Shown: piece after piece, positions 2,953 to 21,592 of the stretch | Position numbering within the stretch: position 1 is the first letter of the stretch | How the letters are laid out: each line of letters starts with the position of its first letter | From: Opitutales bacterium | GTDB lineage: Bacteria > Verrucomicrobiota > Verrucomicrobiia > Opitutales > PNEW01 | NCBI GenBank assembly: GCA_965219535.1 | Contig: CBDCNV010000002.1 | Span: 1,860,001-1,892,000, forward strand | Reading direction: 5' to 3' | DNA: 32,000 nt | Notes under the pieces: generated by a model | Told to the model about the DNA's origin: nothing | Database searches by the model: none | What the model saw: the letters and a program-made list of their open reading frames with translations, nothing else | Position numbers and translations under genes: made by a program

Positions 2953-3130
2953 TTTTAGACAGGGAATTTGAGAAAAGGAAGGAAGACCTGATCCAGTAGC
3001 TATTATCTGCAAGAAACCGCTCACGAGAATCATCATCCTATGCCTTTTTAAGAGTGATTTCAATAGACTTAAACATAATATATTGTTCATTCGAAATCTA
3101 AACGATTTTTAGTTTCAAAGGTATACCAAG

Positions 3131-3169
3131 ATTAATATTGCTATTGAAGAAGACAGAGAGCGTGATTCA
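3131..3169. repeat. 39-nt repeat, copy 2
   Basis: Matches 1218-1256. It ends 2 nt before the left end (TGGCGTGACC) of the decayed IS3 element. Confidence 0.6.
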
Positions 3170-3496
3170 GTGGCGTGACCGCCGAGGACTGGACCATTGC
3201 CAGAGAGAGTCTTTCCGTAAATAAGAACGGAAAGACGAATGAAACAGAAAAGACACAACGCCGAGCAGCTCATAGCAATCCTGCGCGAAGTAGACAGCGC
3301 CAGAGGTATTCAGGAAGTCTACCGTGAGCACAACATCAGTGCTCAAAACTACCATCGCTGGCGAAAAAAATATGGCAAGATGGACCTACGCAATGCGAGG
3401 CGGCTAAAGGAACATGAAGGCGAGAACACGGAACTGAAAAAGATGTTAGCCGAGCAGATGTTAAAGAATCGGGTATTGGAGGAAGTGAATAAAAAA

Positions 3497-3526
3497 TACC
3501 GAGTCGCATAGCGACGACATCTTCCA
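3497..3526 (+). repeat. Short TACCGAG-type insert (30-31 nt) inside the A-run frameshift site of the decayed IS
   Basis: The sequence AATAAAAAA[TACCGAGTCGCATAGCGACGACATCTTCCA]ATGGTAAGC corresponds to the uninterrupted TCAAAAAAATGGTGAGC in the other IS copy. It contains the small hairpin GTCGC-ATA-GCGAC. Confidence 0.7.
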
Positions 3527-4172
3527 ATGGTAAGCTCGTCTCATAAGCAAGAAGCGGTCAAGCATGTGGTAGCCCAGGGGTTTTGCTCGTTGCGTCAGGT
3601 CTGCAGGTATCTTGGGCTCCATCGCTGAACTTATCTCTACGAGTGCAAGCGAGAATCTTATGGTACTCAGACAATGGTGAGACGAATCATTAGACTTTCA
3701 AAGGTACATTCGCGTTATGGCTATCGTAGTATTCGTGCCCTAATGGACAAAGAGGGGTGGAAGGTAAGCCGTAAAATCGTGCAAAAAGTGCGAAGCGCTG
3801 AAGGGCTTGGAGTGAAAACCCTCTCGTCGCCGACAGAGACGACGAGGGCACTCTACTGGGCTCCCTACCCAAACAGTAAAGCCGAACCATGTATGGAGTT
3901 GGGATATTGTTGCCGAGCGCACCGATTGCGGAGGACAACTGCGGATGATGACTTTAATCGATGAGCATACTCGTCAATGCCTGGCCATAAAGGTATCTCG
4001 TTCGCTCAAAAGCAAAGACGTGGTGGAAGTCTTAGTCGAAGCTATTGAAGAGTATGGCAGACCCCAATGCATCCGCTCCGATAACGGTTCGCAGTTCGTA
4101 GCACAAAAAGTCAGAGAAGCACTCCTCAAGTGCCAGAACGACATTATCTACATCGACCCTGGCAGTGCTTGG

Positions 4173-4217
4173 CTACCGAGCGAAGCGACACCTCAACGAA
4201 CGATAGCGAGAATAACA
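4173..4217 (+). repeat. Short TACCGAG-type insert (45 nt, in frame, no stop) in the decayed orfB
   Basis: PGSAW[LPSEATPQRTIARIT]NGHVESFH corresponds to PGSPWQNGFIESFH in the other copy. The nucleotides are CTACCGAGCGAAGCGACACCTCAACGAACGATAGCGAGAATAACA. Confidence 0.7.
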
Positions 4218-4257
4218 AACGGCCATGTTGAATCCTTTCACAATCGACTGCGTGACG

Positions 4258-4294
4258 TACCGAGGAACGCAGTGACGACATAGCGAAGCACTCA
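4258..4294 (+). repeat. Short TACCGAG-type insert (about 37 nt) in the decayed orfB
   Basis: CGTGACG[TACCGAGGAACGCAGTGACGACATAGCGAAGCACTCA]TGCTTAAACCAGGAGTGG corresponds to RLRDECLNRE in the other copy. The insert introduces a TAG and a frame change. Confidence 0.7.
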
Positions 4295-4842
4295 TGCTTA
4301 AACCAGGAGTGGTCTCTAAGCGTTACCGAAGCGCGTGTTGTCATCCATGCGTGGAAGCAAAAATACAATACCTATCACCCTCATAGTCGTTTAGGCTTTC
4401 TCTGTCCCAACGCTTTTGCCAAACTCTGGCAGCAACTCAATCCAACAGGTGCTGGCTCCACTCGGCCTACGGCCTCCCTCCGCCAGCATCTGCTAAACCA
4501 ACAACAGACAACCCACGGAATGGCTCTCACTTAACTTGGTAGTAATTATGGGGTACAATCAATAAATATAATATGACAGTTATTCTTGAGCTGGAGTGAC
4601 CCCCAAAAATCGTATCATTTACAGAGAGAGGTTATCGGGATAAACAGATAACCTCAATGAAAAGAAAAAGATACACAACAGAACAGATTATAACAATATT
4701 GCGGCAAGCCGATACCGGTAAAACGGTACAGGAAATCTGCCGTGGAAACAACCTGAGCGAACAGACTTTCTATCGCTGGCGTAAAAAATATGGCAATTTA
4801 GAACTTGCCGATGCGAAGCGATTTAAAGAGCTGGAAAAAGAA

Positions 4843-4872
4843 TTCACGAGCGCAAGCGAGAAGGCCTGACAT
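4843..4872 (+). repeat. Short insert (30 nt; TTCACGAGCGCAAGCGAGAAGGCCTGACAT) in orfA of IS copy A
   Basis: It is absent from the paralog, which reads KEHEGENTELKKM. It has one in-frame TGA at 4867-4869. Positions 4846-4862 are 16/17 identical to 3639-3655 of the decayed paralog. Confidence 0.7.
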
Positions 4873-4937
4873 ACCGAGCTGAAGAAGCTGCTCGCAGATC
4901 AAATGCTCAAGAATCAGGTAATGGAGGAAACGCTGTC

Positions 4938-4944
4938 AAAAAAA
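4938..4944 (+). promoter_or_regulatory. Putative programmed -1 ribosomal frameshift site (A AAA AAA) joining orfA and orfB
   Basis: A run of seven A lies immediately before the orfA stop (TGG TGA). The orfB frame is -1 and its ATG overlaps the run. This arrangement is classical for the IS3 family. Confidence 0.6.
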
Positions 4945-5909
4945 TGGTGAGCCCAAAGCAGAAGAAACGAGTAGTAAAAGCTGCGGCTGAGAAAGGGTTG
5001 TGCTCGTTGCGGAGGGCTTGTGCTTATCTCAGCCTGAGTTGGTCAACGTTCAGTTACCGGCCCAAACAGGCCAGTGAGAAAGCTCAGCGGTTGGTCGAGC
5101 GGATTGTGAGCTTGTCCTGGAAACATCCCCGCTACGGTTACCGGCGCATCCGTGCCTTGCTGGTAAAGGAAGGCTGGACAACAAGCAGGAAGTTTGTCCA
5201 GGCGGTACGACGTTCAGAAGGGCTGCAGGTAAAGCCCCCGAAAAAGGGCAGACACCGTCAAGGAGTCTCTACGGGGTCACCTACTAAAGCAAAGGGTCGC
5301 AATCACGTTTGGTCCTGGGACTTTGTCCATGATCGTACAGACAACGGCGGTCCATTAAAGATGATGACTCTAATCGATGTACCGAGGAGCTGAAAGCGAC
5401 GACACTCAAGCGAAGCGAAGACATATACGCGTAAATGCCTGGATATCCGGGTCGCTCGTCAACTCACCTCAACCGATGTCCTCTCTGTGCTTAGCGAGGC
5501 CATTGAAGAGGAGGGACCTCCCAGCTATATCCGTAGTGACAACGGCAGTGAGTTCATTGCTCATCAAGTGCAGCAGTGGTTGTCCGGTAATAACATAAAG
5601 GCGATCTATATCGATCCGGGCAGTCCCTGGCAAAACGGTTTCATCGAGTCGTTTCACAACCGCTTACGCGATGAGTGTTTGAACCGTGAAGTGTTGCTCA
5701 GCGTGGCTGAAGCGCAAGTGGTAATCGAACAATGGCGTCAGACCTATAACCATGAACATCCCCACAGTCGTTTAGGCTTCAAAAGCCCACAAGAGTTTGT
5801 CAGATTCCTTTCCGATCTTGGCCGCGTTCGGGCTACGCCCTCACTTCGCCAAGATCTCTCATATACATCAATCCTAAAACCATTAACACCCGGTAACTCT
5901 CTCACTTAA
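4944..5909 (+). pseudogene. IS3-family transposase OrfB (rve/DDE integrase core), interrupted as read by an in-frame 45-nt insert carrying TGA
   Basis: Motifs RYGYRRIRALL, HVWSWDFV (first D), then MMTLID[VPRS*KRRHSSEAKT]YTRKCLDIRVARQLTSTDVLSVLSEAIEEEGPPSYIRSDNGSEF (second D) and NGFIESFHNRLRDE (E). The flanks at 5376 and 5424 are in the same frame. Confidence 0.7.
5379..5423 (+). repeat. Short TACCGAG-type insert (45 nt) in orfB of IS copy A
   Basis: The sequence is G-TACCGAGGAGCTGAAAGCGACGACACTCAAGCGAAGCGAAGAC-A. The paralog reads MMTLIDEHTRQCL without it. It has one in-frame TGA at 5391-5393. Confidence 0.75.
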
Positions 5910-6393
5910 ATTGGTACGAAAAACGGGGTCCGATCACACCTAGGGCTCTGGTAAACAACCAACTTGAGAAACAGTATGTTGACGGCTTAAGGGTTTTTCC
6001 CCAGATAAGCCGTGACCAAAAAGAAAATAAATAGCGTTTTCTTGAAACCAACCTGTATGCCTCTTCCGAACATCTGGCAAACAGTGGTAGTTTGCGGTAT
6101 AACCAATAACCCAACGGTTTATGTGCTGAGTATTGCTTAAATTTAAAAATGGCTTTCGCGCCAAAGAATACCTGGCCTTCAGTATCGATAAAGTGTATCG
6201 CCTCTTCGAAGTGTTCGCGGGGGATTTCGGAAAAACGATTGTCTAGATCCTGAAATGGCTGAATTTCAACAATATTATCAGTTTTAACCCGCCATCTAGC
6301 GATCCATCTACTGCAGAATTCGCATTCACCGTCATAGATAAGAATGGGGCGATTAAGGTGAAGATTAGATAATCTTGAATAATTAAATGTCAT
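5902..6393 (-). CDS. DCC-family thiol-disulfide oxidoreductase (DUF393), with its 3' end running into the IS
   Basis: The N-terminus ILIYDGECEFCSRWIARW carries the DUF393 CxxC signature. The last 11 codons and the stop (5902-5936) are encoded by the right end of IS copy A, so the native C-terminus is replaced. Confidence 0.7.
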   Translation of the reverse strand: MTFNYSRLSNLHLNRPILIYDGECEFCSRWIARWRVKTDNIVEIQPFQDLDNRFSEIPREHFEEAIHFIDTEGQVFFGAKAIFKFKQYSAHKPLGYWLYRKLPLFARCSEEAYRLVSRKRYLFSFWSRLIWGKTLKPSTYCFSSWLFTRALGVIGPRFSYQFK

Positions 6394-19307: not shown

Positions 19308-19655
19308 TTTATACGCAACTCCTTTAATGCCCGCCTGACGTCCCAATAAGTCACTTCATCAGAAGACCTAATATAGGAGGAAAGTAACGATTTGTCACAT
19401 ATATTATTAATCATTCTGGGAATGCCTTTACTTGCATTATAAACTTTCTTTAAAGCCGGATGAGTAAATCGCGGACGACCTTCACTCCCTGCGAGTGTTA
19501 ATCGGTGATGAATGTATCGCTGCGTATCTTCATAATTTAGCGATTCGAGATTATAATAAACTAAGATTCTCTGCCTTAGCTGTCTTAAGCGGTTCTGAGA
19601 CAATTTTTCTTTCAGCTCGGGTTGCCCTTGATCGGACCCCGTTTTTCGTACCAAT

Positions 19656-20621
19656 TTAAGTGAGAGAGTTACCGGGTGTTAATGGTTTTAGGATTGATGT
19701 ATATGAGAGATCTTGGCGAAGTGAGGGCGTAGCCCGAACGCGGCCAAGATCGGAAAGGAATCTGACAAACTCTTGTGGGCTTTTGAAGCCTAAACGACTG
19801 TGGGGATGTTCATGGTTATAGGTCTGACGCCATTGTTCGATTACCACTTGCGCTTCAGCCACGCTGAGCAACACTTCACGGTTCAAACACTCATCGCGTA
19901 AGCGGTTGTGAAACGACTCGATGAAACCGTTTTGCCAGGGACTGCCCGGATCGATATAGATCGCCTTTATGTTATTACCGGACAACCACTGCTGCACTTG
20001 ATGAGCAATGAACTCACTGCCGTTGTCACTACGGATATAGCTGGGAGGTCCCTCCTCTTCAATGGCCTCGCTAAGCACAGAGAGGACATCGGTTGAGGTG
20101 AGTTGACGAGCGACCCGGATATCCAGGCATTTACGCGTATATGTCTTCGCTTCGCTTGAGTGTCGTCGCTTTCAGCTCCTCGGTACATCGATTAGAGTCA
20201 TCATCTTTAATGGACCGCCGTTGTCTGTACGATCATGGACAAAGTCCCAGGACCAAACGTGATTGCGACCCTTTGCTTTAGTAGGTGACCCCGTAGAGAC
20301 TCCTTGACGGTGTCTGCCCTTTTTCGGGGGCTTTACCTGCAGCCCTTCTGAACGTCGTACCGCCTGGACAAACTTCCTGCTTGTTGTCCAGCCTTCCTTT
20401 ACCAGCAAGGCACGGATGCGCCGGTAACCGTAGCGGGGATGTTTCCAGGACAAGCTCACAATCCGCTCGACCAACCGCTGAGCTTTCTCACTGGCCTGTT
20501 TGGGCCGGTAACTGAACGTTGACCAACTCAGGCTGAGATAAGCACAAGCCCTCCGCAACGAGCACAACCCTTTCTCAGCCGCAGCTTTTACTACTCGTTT
20601 CTTCTGCTTTGGGCTCACCAT
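19656..20621 (-). pseudogene. IS3-family transposase OrfB of copy B, same 45-nt in-frame insert
   Basis: Mirror image of 4944-5909 with identical translations. Confidence 0.7.
20142..20186 (-). repeat. Short TACCGAG-type insert (45 nt) in orfB of IS copy B
   Basis: The reverse complement is identical to 5379-5423. Confidence 0.75.
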
Positions 20622-20627
20622 TTTTTT
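20621..20627 (-). promoter_or_regulatory. Putative -1 frameshift A7 run of IS copy B
   Basis: Mirror of 4938-4944. Confidence 0.6.
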
Positions 20628-20692
20628 GACAGCGTTTCCTCCATTACCTGATTCTTGAGCATTTGATCTGCGAGCAGCTTCTTCAGCTCGGT

Positions 20693-20722
20693 ATGTCAGG
20701 CCTTCTCGCTTGCGCTCGTGAA
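20693..20722 (-). repeat. Short insert (30 nt) in orfA of IS copy B
   Basis: The reverse complement is identical to 4843-4872. Confidence 0.7.
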
Positions 20723-21592
20723 TTCTTTTTCCAGCTCTTTAAATCGCTTCGCATCGGCAAGTTCTAAATTGCCATATTTTTTACGCCAGCGATAGAAAGT
20801 CTGTTCGCTCAGGTTGTTTCCACGGCAGATTTCCTGTACCGTTTTACCGGTATCGGCTTGCCGCAATATTGTTATAATCTGTTCTGTTGTGTATCTTTTT
20901 CTTTTCATTGAGGTTATCTGTTTATCCCGATAACCTCTCTCTGTAAATGATACGATTTTTGGGGGTCACTCCACCCGAGCATAATGATCTGCAATAGTTT
21001 TTGCTTGTCTGTTTCCAGATTGGAAAGCAGGCGCAAGTGTTCCATTGTTTCAATCGCTAAATTTTGTGATTCGTCGATGATGAGGACAATATCTTTTCCT
21101 GCATGGATGCGATCAAGGAGCACGCGGTTTAGATGATCAATAAGATCAACTCGGCTGCTTTCCTGAGCCATTTCTGTTTCTCCCAACTCCATTAGTATGG
21201 CTTTAAGAAGCTCTGTTTCGCTTAAACGAGGATTAAGAATGAGCGCAGTTTCATAGCGCTCCGTATCTATTTCATTAAGTAATTTTCGACAGATAGTGGT
21301 TTTGCCACATCCAACTTCACCCGTTAGGACAATAAAACCTTTTTTCTCTTCAATCCCGTATAGTAAGTGAGACAGAGCATCCTGATGAGTCGCACTCAGG
21401 AAAAGAAACTTGGGATCGGGACTGATATTAAAGGGCATCTCCCGCAGACTGTAGTAACGCTGGTACATTAAGCATTAAATAGATTAACAATCTATATATC
21501 AAAAAAAAAGCGATTAGAAAACAGCAATGTGCTTTTTTCTTCTCATACGCTATCTTAAATGTTATAATAAAATCCCAAGAAGTAAATTGGCG

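Follow-up and report, generated by a model that had tools for sequence, protein, structure and literature searches.

A family of dinucleotide-replacing mini-inserts in the transposase genes of an IS3-family element from Opitutales

The small dispersed repeats (SDRs) of heterocystous cyanobacteria, which Elhai et al. reported in 2008, are said to be 21–27 nt long, apparently mobile, capable of forming hairpins and present within other mobile elements, the mobilising activity reportedly being unidentified. Further short bacterial repeats include the repetitive extragenic palindromic (REP) sequences, tagged with GTAG or CGTC, and the Rickettsia palindromic elements (RPE), which insert within open reading frames (ORFs); the stems of REPs measure 8–9 bp, and CGTC-type REPs are without an identified transposase (PMC3733652). 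Short inserts in coding sequence are known as well from programmed ribosomal bypassing, namely the cassette of T4 gene 60 and the byp elements of Magnusiomyces mitochondria (bioRxiv 10.1101/2022.08.31.505936; PMC5009743). Here we analyse a 32,000-nt stretch of the genome of an Opitutales bacterium (assembly GCA_965219535.1, contig CBDCNV010000002.1, positions 1,860,001 to 1,892,000; hereafter the window), in which two identical copies of an IS3-family insertion sequence (IS) each carry one short insert with an in-frame TGA in orfA and another in orfB. These inserts are a new variant of tiny REP/RPE/SDR-like bacterial repeats, unusual in that they replace a dinucleotide and are concentrated in transposase genes. 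They form a family of mini-elements inserted at the level of DNA, and the broken, non-autonomous IS copies have probably spread by way of intact helpers or gained their inserts in place, an account in which no bypass is needed. The features of the window that matter first are the following.

4592..5936, + strand: IS copy A, IS3-family, carrying inserts A and B (repeat finder, domain scan)
4843..4871, + strand: mini-insert A, 29 nt, TTCACGAGCGCAAGCGAGAAGGCCTGACA, in-frame TGA at 4867–4869 (delimited against intact copies L137 and L140)
4938..4944, + strand: A7 slippery run, site of the −1 frameshift fusing OrfA and OrfB (read from the sequence)
5380..5423, + strand: mini-insert B, 44 nt, TACCGAGGAGCTGAAAGCGACGACACTCAAGCGAAGCGAAGACA, in-frame TGA at 5391–5393 (delimited against intact copies)
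19629..20973, − strand: IS copy B, IS3-family, 100% identical to copy A, within a gene for an ExeA-like AAA_22 ATPase
20142..20185, − strand: mini-insert B within IS copy B, missing at the orthologous locus L136
20694..20722, − strand: mini-insert A within IS copy B (mapped from the 100% identical inverted copy)

The repeat of the window is one inverted pair of 1345 nt, its two halves being 100% identical, and both the repeat finder and the translations agree with a preliminary description of this DNA, which had reported two identical IS copies, each with a TGA-bearing in-frame insert in orfA and in orfB. The element has an HTH OrfA (HTH_Tnp_1) and a DDE/rve OrfB (HTH_21, rve, rve_3) joined at an A-rich −1 frameshift site, and its ends are TG...CA (TGGAGTGACCCC...GGGGTCCGATCA), as in the IS3 family, whose standard layout includes the slippery run and the −1 OrfA/OrfB fusion. 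OrfB lies in the −1 frame, with an ATG of that frame at 4944–4946 and the OrfA stop at 4948–4950. Target duplications of 4 bp surround many copies of the IS (e.g., GGAA, GAGC, GAGG, TGAT and CGAG). Copy B is flanked by a GGG duplication (3 of 4 bp) and does split a gene, as had been described, the gene being not gspA as first named and instead that of the ExeA-like ATPase. Copy A, which is identical to the copies at L123, L128 and L132 of the source population, has no target duplication (flanks GAGC and CACC). The two inverted copies enclose 13.7 kb, for which inversion or movement as a composite unit is conceivable; inversion between them was rejected as the source of copy A's missing duplication, because swapping the flanks gives no matching duplications. 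TGA had rightly been taken as a genuine stop: among the window's 21 long ORFs it terminates 8, and none requires it to be read as sense, so that an altered code is rejected.

Compared with the intact copies at L137 and L140, insert A amounts to a 27-nt indel plus one base change, its 29 nt replacing the AA of an AAT codon (Asn) in the coiled-coil region of OrfA for a net gain of 27 nt, and insert B replaces the AA of a GAA codon (Glu) in LID-E-YTR for a net gain of 42 nt. The sizes first given, 30 and 45 nt, are corrected to 29 and 44 nt, and the net gains are still multiples of three; after each TGA the transposase reading frame resumes unchanged, in orfA as in orfB. Inserts A and B are true insertions, because homologues and otherwise identical IS copies without them exist: the closest OrfB homologues, found by a search with the insert-free OrfB (306–307 aa, 91–93% identity), have nothing at the insert position. 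The prior chance that both net lengths are divisible by three is 1/9, and two of two are; the in-frame lengths are incidental and not beyond chance, and divisibility by three is not a rule of the family, because the sister inserts C (+31) and E (+35) break the frame. Insert A is the most divergent member of the family, and insert B is 44/44 identical in 24 of 29 scored copies from the window and four other assemblies. There is a likeness, perhaps coincidental, between the head of insert B (ACCGAGGAGCTGAAAGC) and the native OrfA sequence directly after insert A (4872–4890, ACCGAGCTGAAGAAGC).

OrfB relatives from species-representative genomes gave 77 loci, almost all in Opitutales (Verrucomicrobiota) metagenome-assembled genomes (MAGs), and 43 full-length IS copies from six assemblies were aligned to an insert-free reference IS (L003:2673-3950, 1278 bp). 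The alignment holds five recurrent insert sites, each with a sequence of its own.

Site A, in OrfA at EKE-N-TE: net +27 nt; filled in the window, L015 and L012
Site B, at LID-E-YTR: net +42 nt; 34 copies
Site C, at SDNGS-E-F: net +31 nt; about 37 copies
Site D, at GSPW-Q-NG: net +42 nt; 11 copies
Site E, at RLRD-E-C: net +35 nt; 10 copies

Occupancy is combinatorial (-BC--, -BCDE, --C-E, ---DE, --CD-, A---E and AB---, among others). Inserts A, B and E disable the gene through stop codons, and C and E through frameshifts; insert D adds 14 codons and is stop-free. Insert D and a 21-nt variant of C are found as uninterrupted ORFs (P0014, P0010), and some inserts may be tolerated when translated. 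The five fixed sites adjoin the most conserved transposase motifs. In an AlphaFold model of an intact homologue (P0001; mean pLDDT, the predicted local distance difference test score, 74), site B falls in the β2–β3 turn of the RNase-H-like core, site C three residues past the catalytic Asp184, site D in the loop preceding the helix with the catalytic Glu, and site E at the end of that helix.

Intact and broken copies occur together in the source population. The window's exact 149-aa ORF, which comprises the OrfB N-terminus and insert B, is present on at least 22 contigs of long-read assemblies, and the exact insert-free OrfB (P0121, 307 aa, Glu at site B) on 13 contigs; the latter share assemblies and the 8–10x coverage class with contigs bearing AB and ABC copies identical to the window's. 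Alignment of 19 IS copies of this population gave five states (intact, A, AB, ABC and BC), all of them represented within one assembly, together with one diverged -BC-E copy.

State -----: L133, L137, L138 and L140
State A----: 4 copies at 4 different sites
State AB---: 5 copies, the window's included, at 5 different sites
State ABC--: 5 copies at 5 different sites
State -BC--: 1 copy, L127

The inserts are active now, in that otherwise identical IS copies differ by insert presence alone: L137, L140 and the A, AB, ABC and BC copies are distinguished solely by the inserts and the replaced bases. A wholly intact IS, flanked by a CGAG target duplication, lies at L137, and 4-bp duplications surround AB as well as ABC copies. 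At L136, the locus orthologous to the interrupted exeA-like gene of the window, the IS carries insert A and is without insert B, the two loci being 100% identical over 2.9 kb upstream of insert B and 99.9% identical over 3.0 kb beyond it; insert B was therefore gained or lost in place. L143 is likewise an orthologous locus with the same IS free of insert B.

Because intact copies are present, trans-complementation is available, with the intact copies most likely supplying the transposase, and intact helpers plus in-place change are therefore sufficient to account for what is seen. The AB copies of the window would be non-autonomous and mobilised in trans by intact copies of the same genome, and inserts would also be added to, or converted in, IS copies already in place, as at the exeA locus. 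A transposase that is broken twice in identical copies, and has spread recently, needs no recoding, since intact siblings of the broken IS exist. Three explanations had been offered at the outset: trans-complementation finds its helpers in the intact copies of the source population, gene conversion is in keeping with the gain or loss of insert B at L136, and removal or bypass of the inserts at the RNA or translation level is not supported, since insert-free intact copies, which the preliminary description had named as telling against it, were found, with further points set out below. One of the intact copies, L140, lies on a contig of 237,917 nt (ERZ25072670 ctg255515_9x_c) whose suffix "_c" may mean circular and hence a large plasmid; this contig could be a reservoir of the autonomous copy. 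In the plasmid collection nothing matched beyond an uninformative 70-nt conserved transposase patch in actinobacterial IS3 elements, and copies of the element were absent from the viral contigs searched.

Several observations weigh against trans-mobilisation by intact copies. IS3-family transposases such as that of IS911 favour action in cis, and efficient mobilisation in trans is not their default. The intact copies could be placed in a near-identical sister assembly but not in the window's own. In the related Opitutales MAG CBDANS01, BC copies form two bursts, one of 8 and one of 13, each more than 99% identical; 4-bp target duplications were seen at five of these copies in all. An insert-free copy of the IS family was not found among the 80 best loci, in CBDANS01 or in the complete OY829953 chromosome, likewise from a related Opitutales genome. 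Between lineages that all carry inserts the ratio of nonsynonymous to synonymous divergence (dN/dS) is 0.13–0.32. That broken copies do get mobilised is argued by one of the burst lineages, which also bears an ordinary in-frame TAG. A recurrent TAG allele at OrfB codon 22 (TTGCGG to TTTTAG) is common to many diverged IS lineages in two Opitutales MAGs (L061-L072, L007, L010, L013-L015, L030, L046, L058 and L074; not in the window), and two copies have a deletion of 19–21 nt precisely at this spot.

Across a synonymous divergence of 0.35–0.47 between lineages, inserts B and E hardly vary. Their flanks differ by 10–17%, the differences starting 10–11 nt from the insert, and lineages that share an identical 44-nt insert B have 21 mismatches within ±60 nt of it. 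Long-tract gene conversion was rejected as the origin of identical inserts in diverged IS copies, given flanks that differ from 10–11 nt outwards and the differing left bases of insert C. The inserts have either moved precisely and recently or are strongly constrained, and recent transfer does occur, since identical IS copies are polymorphic for them.

Members of the family range from 29 to 47 nt. In alignment they begin with the head WWCCGAG(G), followed by a mini-hairpin whose 2-bp stem closes a GNA loop, by the core GACGACA and by a GCGAAGC hairpin with a stem extension of variable length; (C)CA forms the tail. The bases of one stem pair covary (G-C in 12 members, A-T in 7, G-T in 1, unpaired in 0). 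Because shuffled sequences are predicted to fold more strongly than inserts A and B (z +1.3 and +1.5), the case for structure rests on this covariation and on the notable stability of GCGAAGC mini-hairpins, which nearest-neighbour models may underrate. Every insert at a coding site replaces AA or AG, usually in the context G^AR^T, and comes without target duplication and without inverted ends. At sites B, C and E the context extends to RTG^AR^T. The + strand of the reference IS (1278 bp) contains RTGART at exactly these three sites and nowhere else, and the other strand contains it once; since the motif had been taken from the three sites, only the absence of further matches is informative. 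Reading the variable WW of the head as a 2-nt target duplication fits TT-type elements (4 of 5) and not others. The inserts were rejected as miniature inverted-repeat transposable elements (MITEs), because inverted ends are absent and AR is replaced, not duplicated; replacement of a dinucleotide fits none of the mechanisms compared (MITE-type DDE, IS200/IS605, REP with its REP-associated tyrosine transposase (RAYT), and serine or tyrosine recombinases). An Rfam search of window positions 3000–6100 and 16 related loci gave zero matches above noise and no known ribozyme family, and self-splicing introns were rejected on this ground and because the inserts are far shorter than group I or group II introns. 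The core sequence brought up nothing relevant in the searchable literature, and the family is apparently undescribed; few sequence-defined mobile inserts seen in bacteria are as small as its members.

Members of the family also occur outside this IS. When metagenomes were scanned with a gapped pattern of 22 bases, 40 matches were returned, of which about 22 are clear members. Several of these, from unrelated metagenomes, lie in the T-loop of a duplicated tRNA 3' end (GGTTCG^AA^TCC...CCA), 60–90 nt downstream of an intact tRNA gene, and others, again from unrelated metagenomes, break an IS5/DUF772-type transposase at the Glu codon of SDEET-E-FQVMDRFSF.

L096 7213–7242, − strand: member in T-loop
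L098 1082–1113, − strand: member in T-loop
L113 3570–3598, − strand: member in T-loop
L085 3845–3875, − strand: member in IS5/DUF772-type transposase
L120 676–706: member in IS5/DUF772-type transposase
L122 772–802: member in IS5/DUF772-type transposase

One member, in L093, sits in a tRNA-like D-loop, and related copies are present in intergenic DNA of Opitutales loci. In 0.88 Mb there are 118 head-plus-core matches, about 110 of them in IS copies, the DNA sampled being biased towards IS loci. Near the L096 member lie two ORFs called by eye, a large helicase-like one and one with a GIY-YIG/T5orf172-like motif. The member at L084 846–878 is bracketed by a 10-nt direct repeat, TTTTGGCAGG, unlike the IS-borne copies, and L021 and L033 hold tandem, repeat-flanked intergenic copies of a D-like subfamily.

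With REPs and RPEs the mini-inserts have in common a length of 20–50 nt, a stem-loop with an unpaired tag and a CCA-like tail, a dispersed distribution that includes some coding regions, and the absence of an encoded protein. They differ in that their stems are only 2–5 bp long, that GTAG is missing and CGTC appears only on the opposite strand within the GACGACA core, and that they are not dimeric, replace AR at fixed sites and, in the DNA sampled, are concentrated in transposase genes. No RAYT (IS200-like Y1) gene turned up in the approximately 1 Mb of loci examined, in which no dedicated RAYT test was made and whole genomes were not covered. Set against the SDRs as described above, the mini-inserts are longer, have another sequence, belong to another phylum, and show a two-hairpin design and dinucleotide replacement. 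The gene 60 cassette and the byp elements resemble them as short (27–55 nt) mobile inserts in ORFs with a stop or rare codon near the 5' end and a Shine–Dalgarno-like AGGAG; in inserts B, C and E an AGG follows CCG, and in insert B a UGA follows AGC. The mini-inserts are, however, without a general take-off/landing pair, a stable 5' stem-loop is not predicted for them, some of them would need frame changes without matching codons, and they also occur in non-coding DNA. Moreover, intact host genes coexist with the interrupted ones, and the interrupted gene is probably not the functional copy, since uninterrupted OrfB is found on 13 contigs of the same assemblies. Non-autonomous, MITE-like IS derivatives offer a further parallel, with a dead transposase and intact ends amplified beside few autonomous copies, but here the IS is of full length and was killed by a smaller inserted element instead of an internal deletion. 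A caution for annotation is that transposase pseudogenes of Opitutales, and probably others, can be restored in silico by removing the cassettes.

A more far-reaching reading, which we regard as possible though doubtful, is that the inserts make up a novel class of ultra-small mobile elements, parasites of other parasites, with an AR-replacing chemistry of their own at G^AR^T, homing to conserved Glu/Gln codons of IS3 and IS5 transposases and to T-loops and silencing IS genome-wide, with some members perhaps passed by ribosomes or RNA processing (C through CCG...CCA, B through AGC-UGA...AGC). Elements of such a class may act on single-stranded DNA or RNA hairpins. A dedicated mechanism, should there be one, would be a natural route for disabling IS and a possible tool for short, precise insertions.

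Leaky readthrough is an unlikely way for the window's AB copies to have moved. Translation through both UGAs (GCC-UGA-C and AGC-UGA-A) would give a little OrfAB with 9 + 14 extra residues, enough for occasional self-mobilisation provided that the dimerisation region of OrfA tolerates the added 9, and it would suit the fact that A and B are in frame with a single UGA each, that UGA-C is the leakiest stop context in bacteria, that site B lies, in the model, in a turn of the RNase-H-like core, and that D and the 21-nt variant of C exist as open in-frame ORFs. Two readthroughs plus the −1 frameshift would nevertheless be required, and the spread of the ABC copies, which are no fewer than the AB copies and are lengthened by 31 nt through C, cannot be explained in this way.

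Still less probable is the idea that the inserts are neutralised in expression, by ribosomal bypass or excision from RNA, and act as attenuators while interrupted copies continue to make transposase. It draws on the BC bursts (8 and 13 near-identical copies) of CBDANS01, in which intact copies were not observed, on a dN/dS of 0.19–0.32 among four BCDE copies of one genome, and on the near-invariance of B and E across their lineages. It draws further on the inserts themselves: each swaps out exactly two bases, so that removal of all but two restores the frame everywhere, the heads of B, C, D and E share one reading phase (GUW or CUA followed by CCG and next by AGG, or AGC in D), and in C the upstream frame offers CCG and the downstream frame CCA, B containing AGC-UGA...AGC. 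Against it, intact copies coexist with the window's IS type. The preliminary description saw no take-off and landing codons, which holds for A, D and E; B has a pair that it had missed, but neither this nor that of C is beyond chance in so repetitive a composition, and the pair of B is not found in the others. A and B are predicted to fold less stably than shuffles, and neither Rfam nor ribozyme matches were obtained. The proteins with Ala or Val at the junction, expected from splicing, hopping or an excision footprint, are missing by exact look-up from a collection of 15 billion proteins that includes Logan assemblies of public sequencing runs; excision footprints were also rejected on the homologues, 0 of 120 insert-free ones having Ala or Val at the sites. 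The same elements are also found where translation plays no part, in intergenic DNA and in non-coding tRNA remnants, and the burst lineage with its ordinary in-frame TAG spread anyway. Rescue of C and E by a +1 or −1 frameshift was rejected, there being no slippery or permissive sequence and stops lying in the alternative frames.

Least probable, by a little, is a host or rival-element system that writes short, non-selfish cassettes into conserved motifs to disable transposases: the preponderance of IS copies among the head-plus-core matches, the position of the sites beside the catalytic D and E motifs, the striking of both IS3 and IS5 transposases and of all copies in two genomes speak for it, but sampling favoured IS loci, tRNA remnants and intergenic DNA hold members as well, enrichment in IS is expected from hitch-hiking on IS amplification with purging from essential genes, and an associated gene was not found.

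The remaining members of the family in the window belong to a third, degenerate IS3-like element with about 50% amino acid identity to the main IS, which lies 30 bp upstream of copy A.

3171..4561, + strand: third, degenerate IS3-like element (tblastn segments)
3497..3526, + strand: mini-insert F of the third IS, 30 nt, TACCGAGTCGCATAGCGACGACATCTTCCA, at its A-run frameshift site
4174..4217, + strand: mini-insert D of the third IS, 44 nt, at GSPW-Q-NG, 40/44 identical to D of the main family
4258..4294, + strand: mini-insert E of the third IS, 37 nt, at RLRD-E-C, 35/37 identical to E of the main family

Insert F resembles an intergenic copy in L074. The third IS also holds an ordinary TGA mutation at 3626–3628. 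Elsewhere, an IS merely 44% identical to the main one bears insert C at 33/33, the four bases on its left differing from those of the main family. The predicted protein P0029, SVPRSEATPQRAIARIT, corresponds to a deletion that fuses insert C to insert D, and suggests that mini-inserts recombine with one another.

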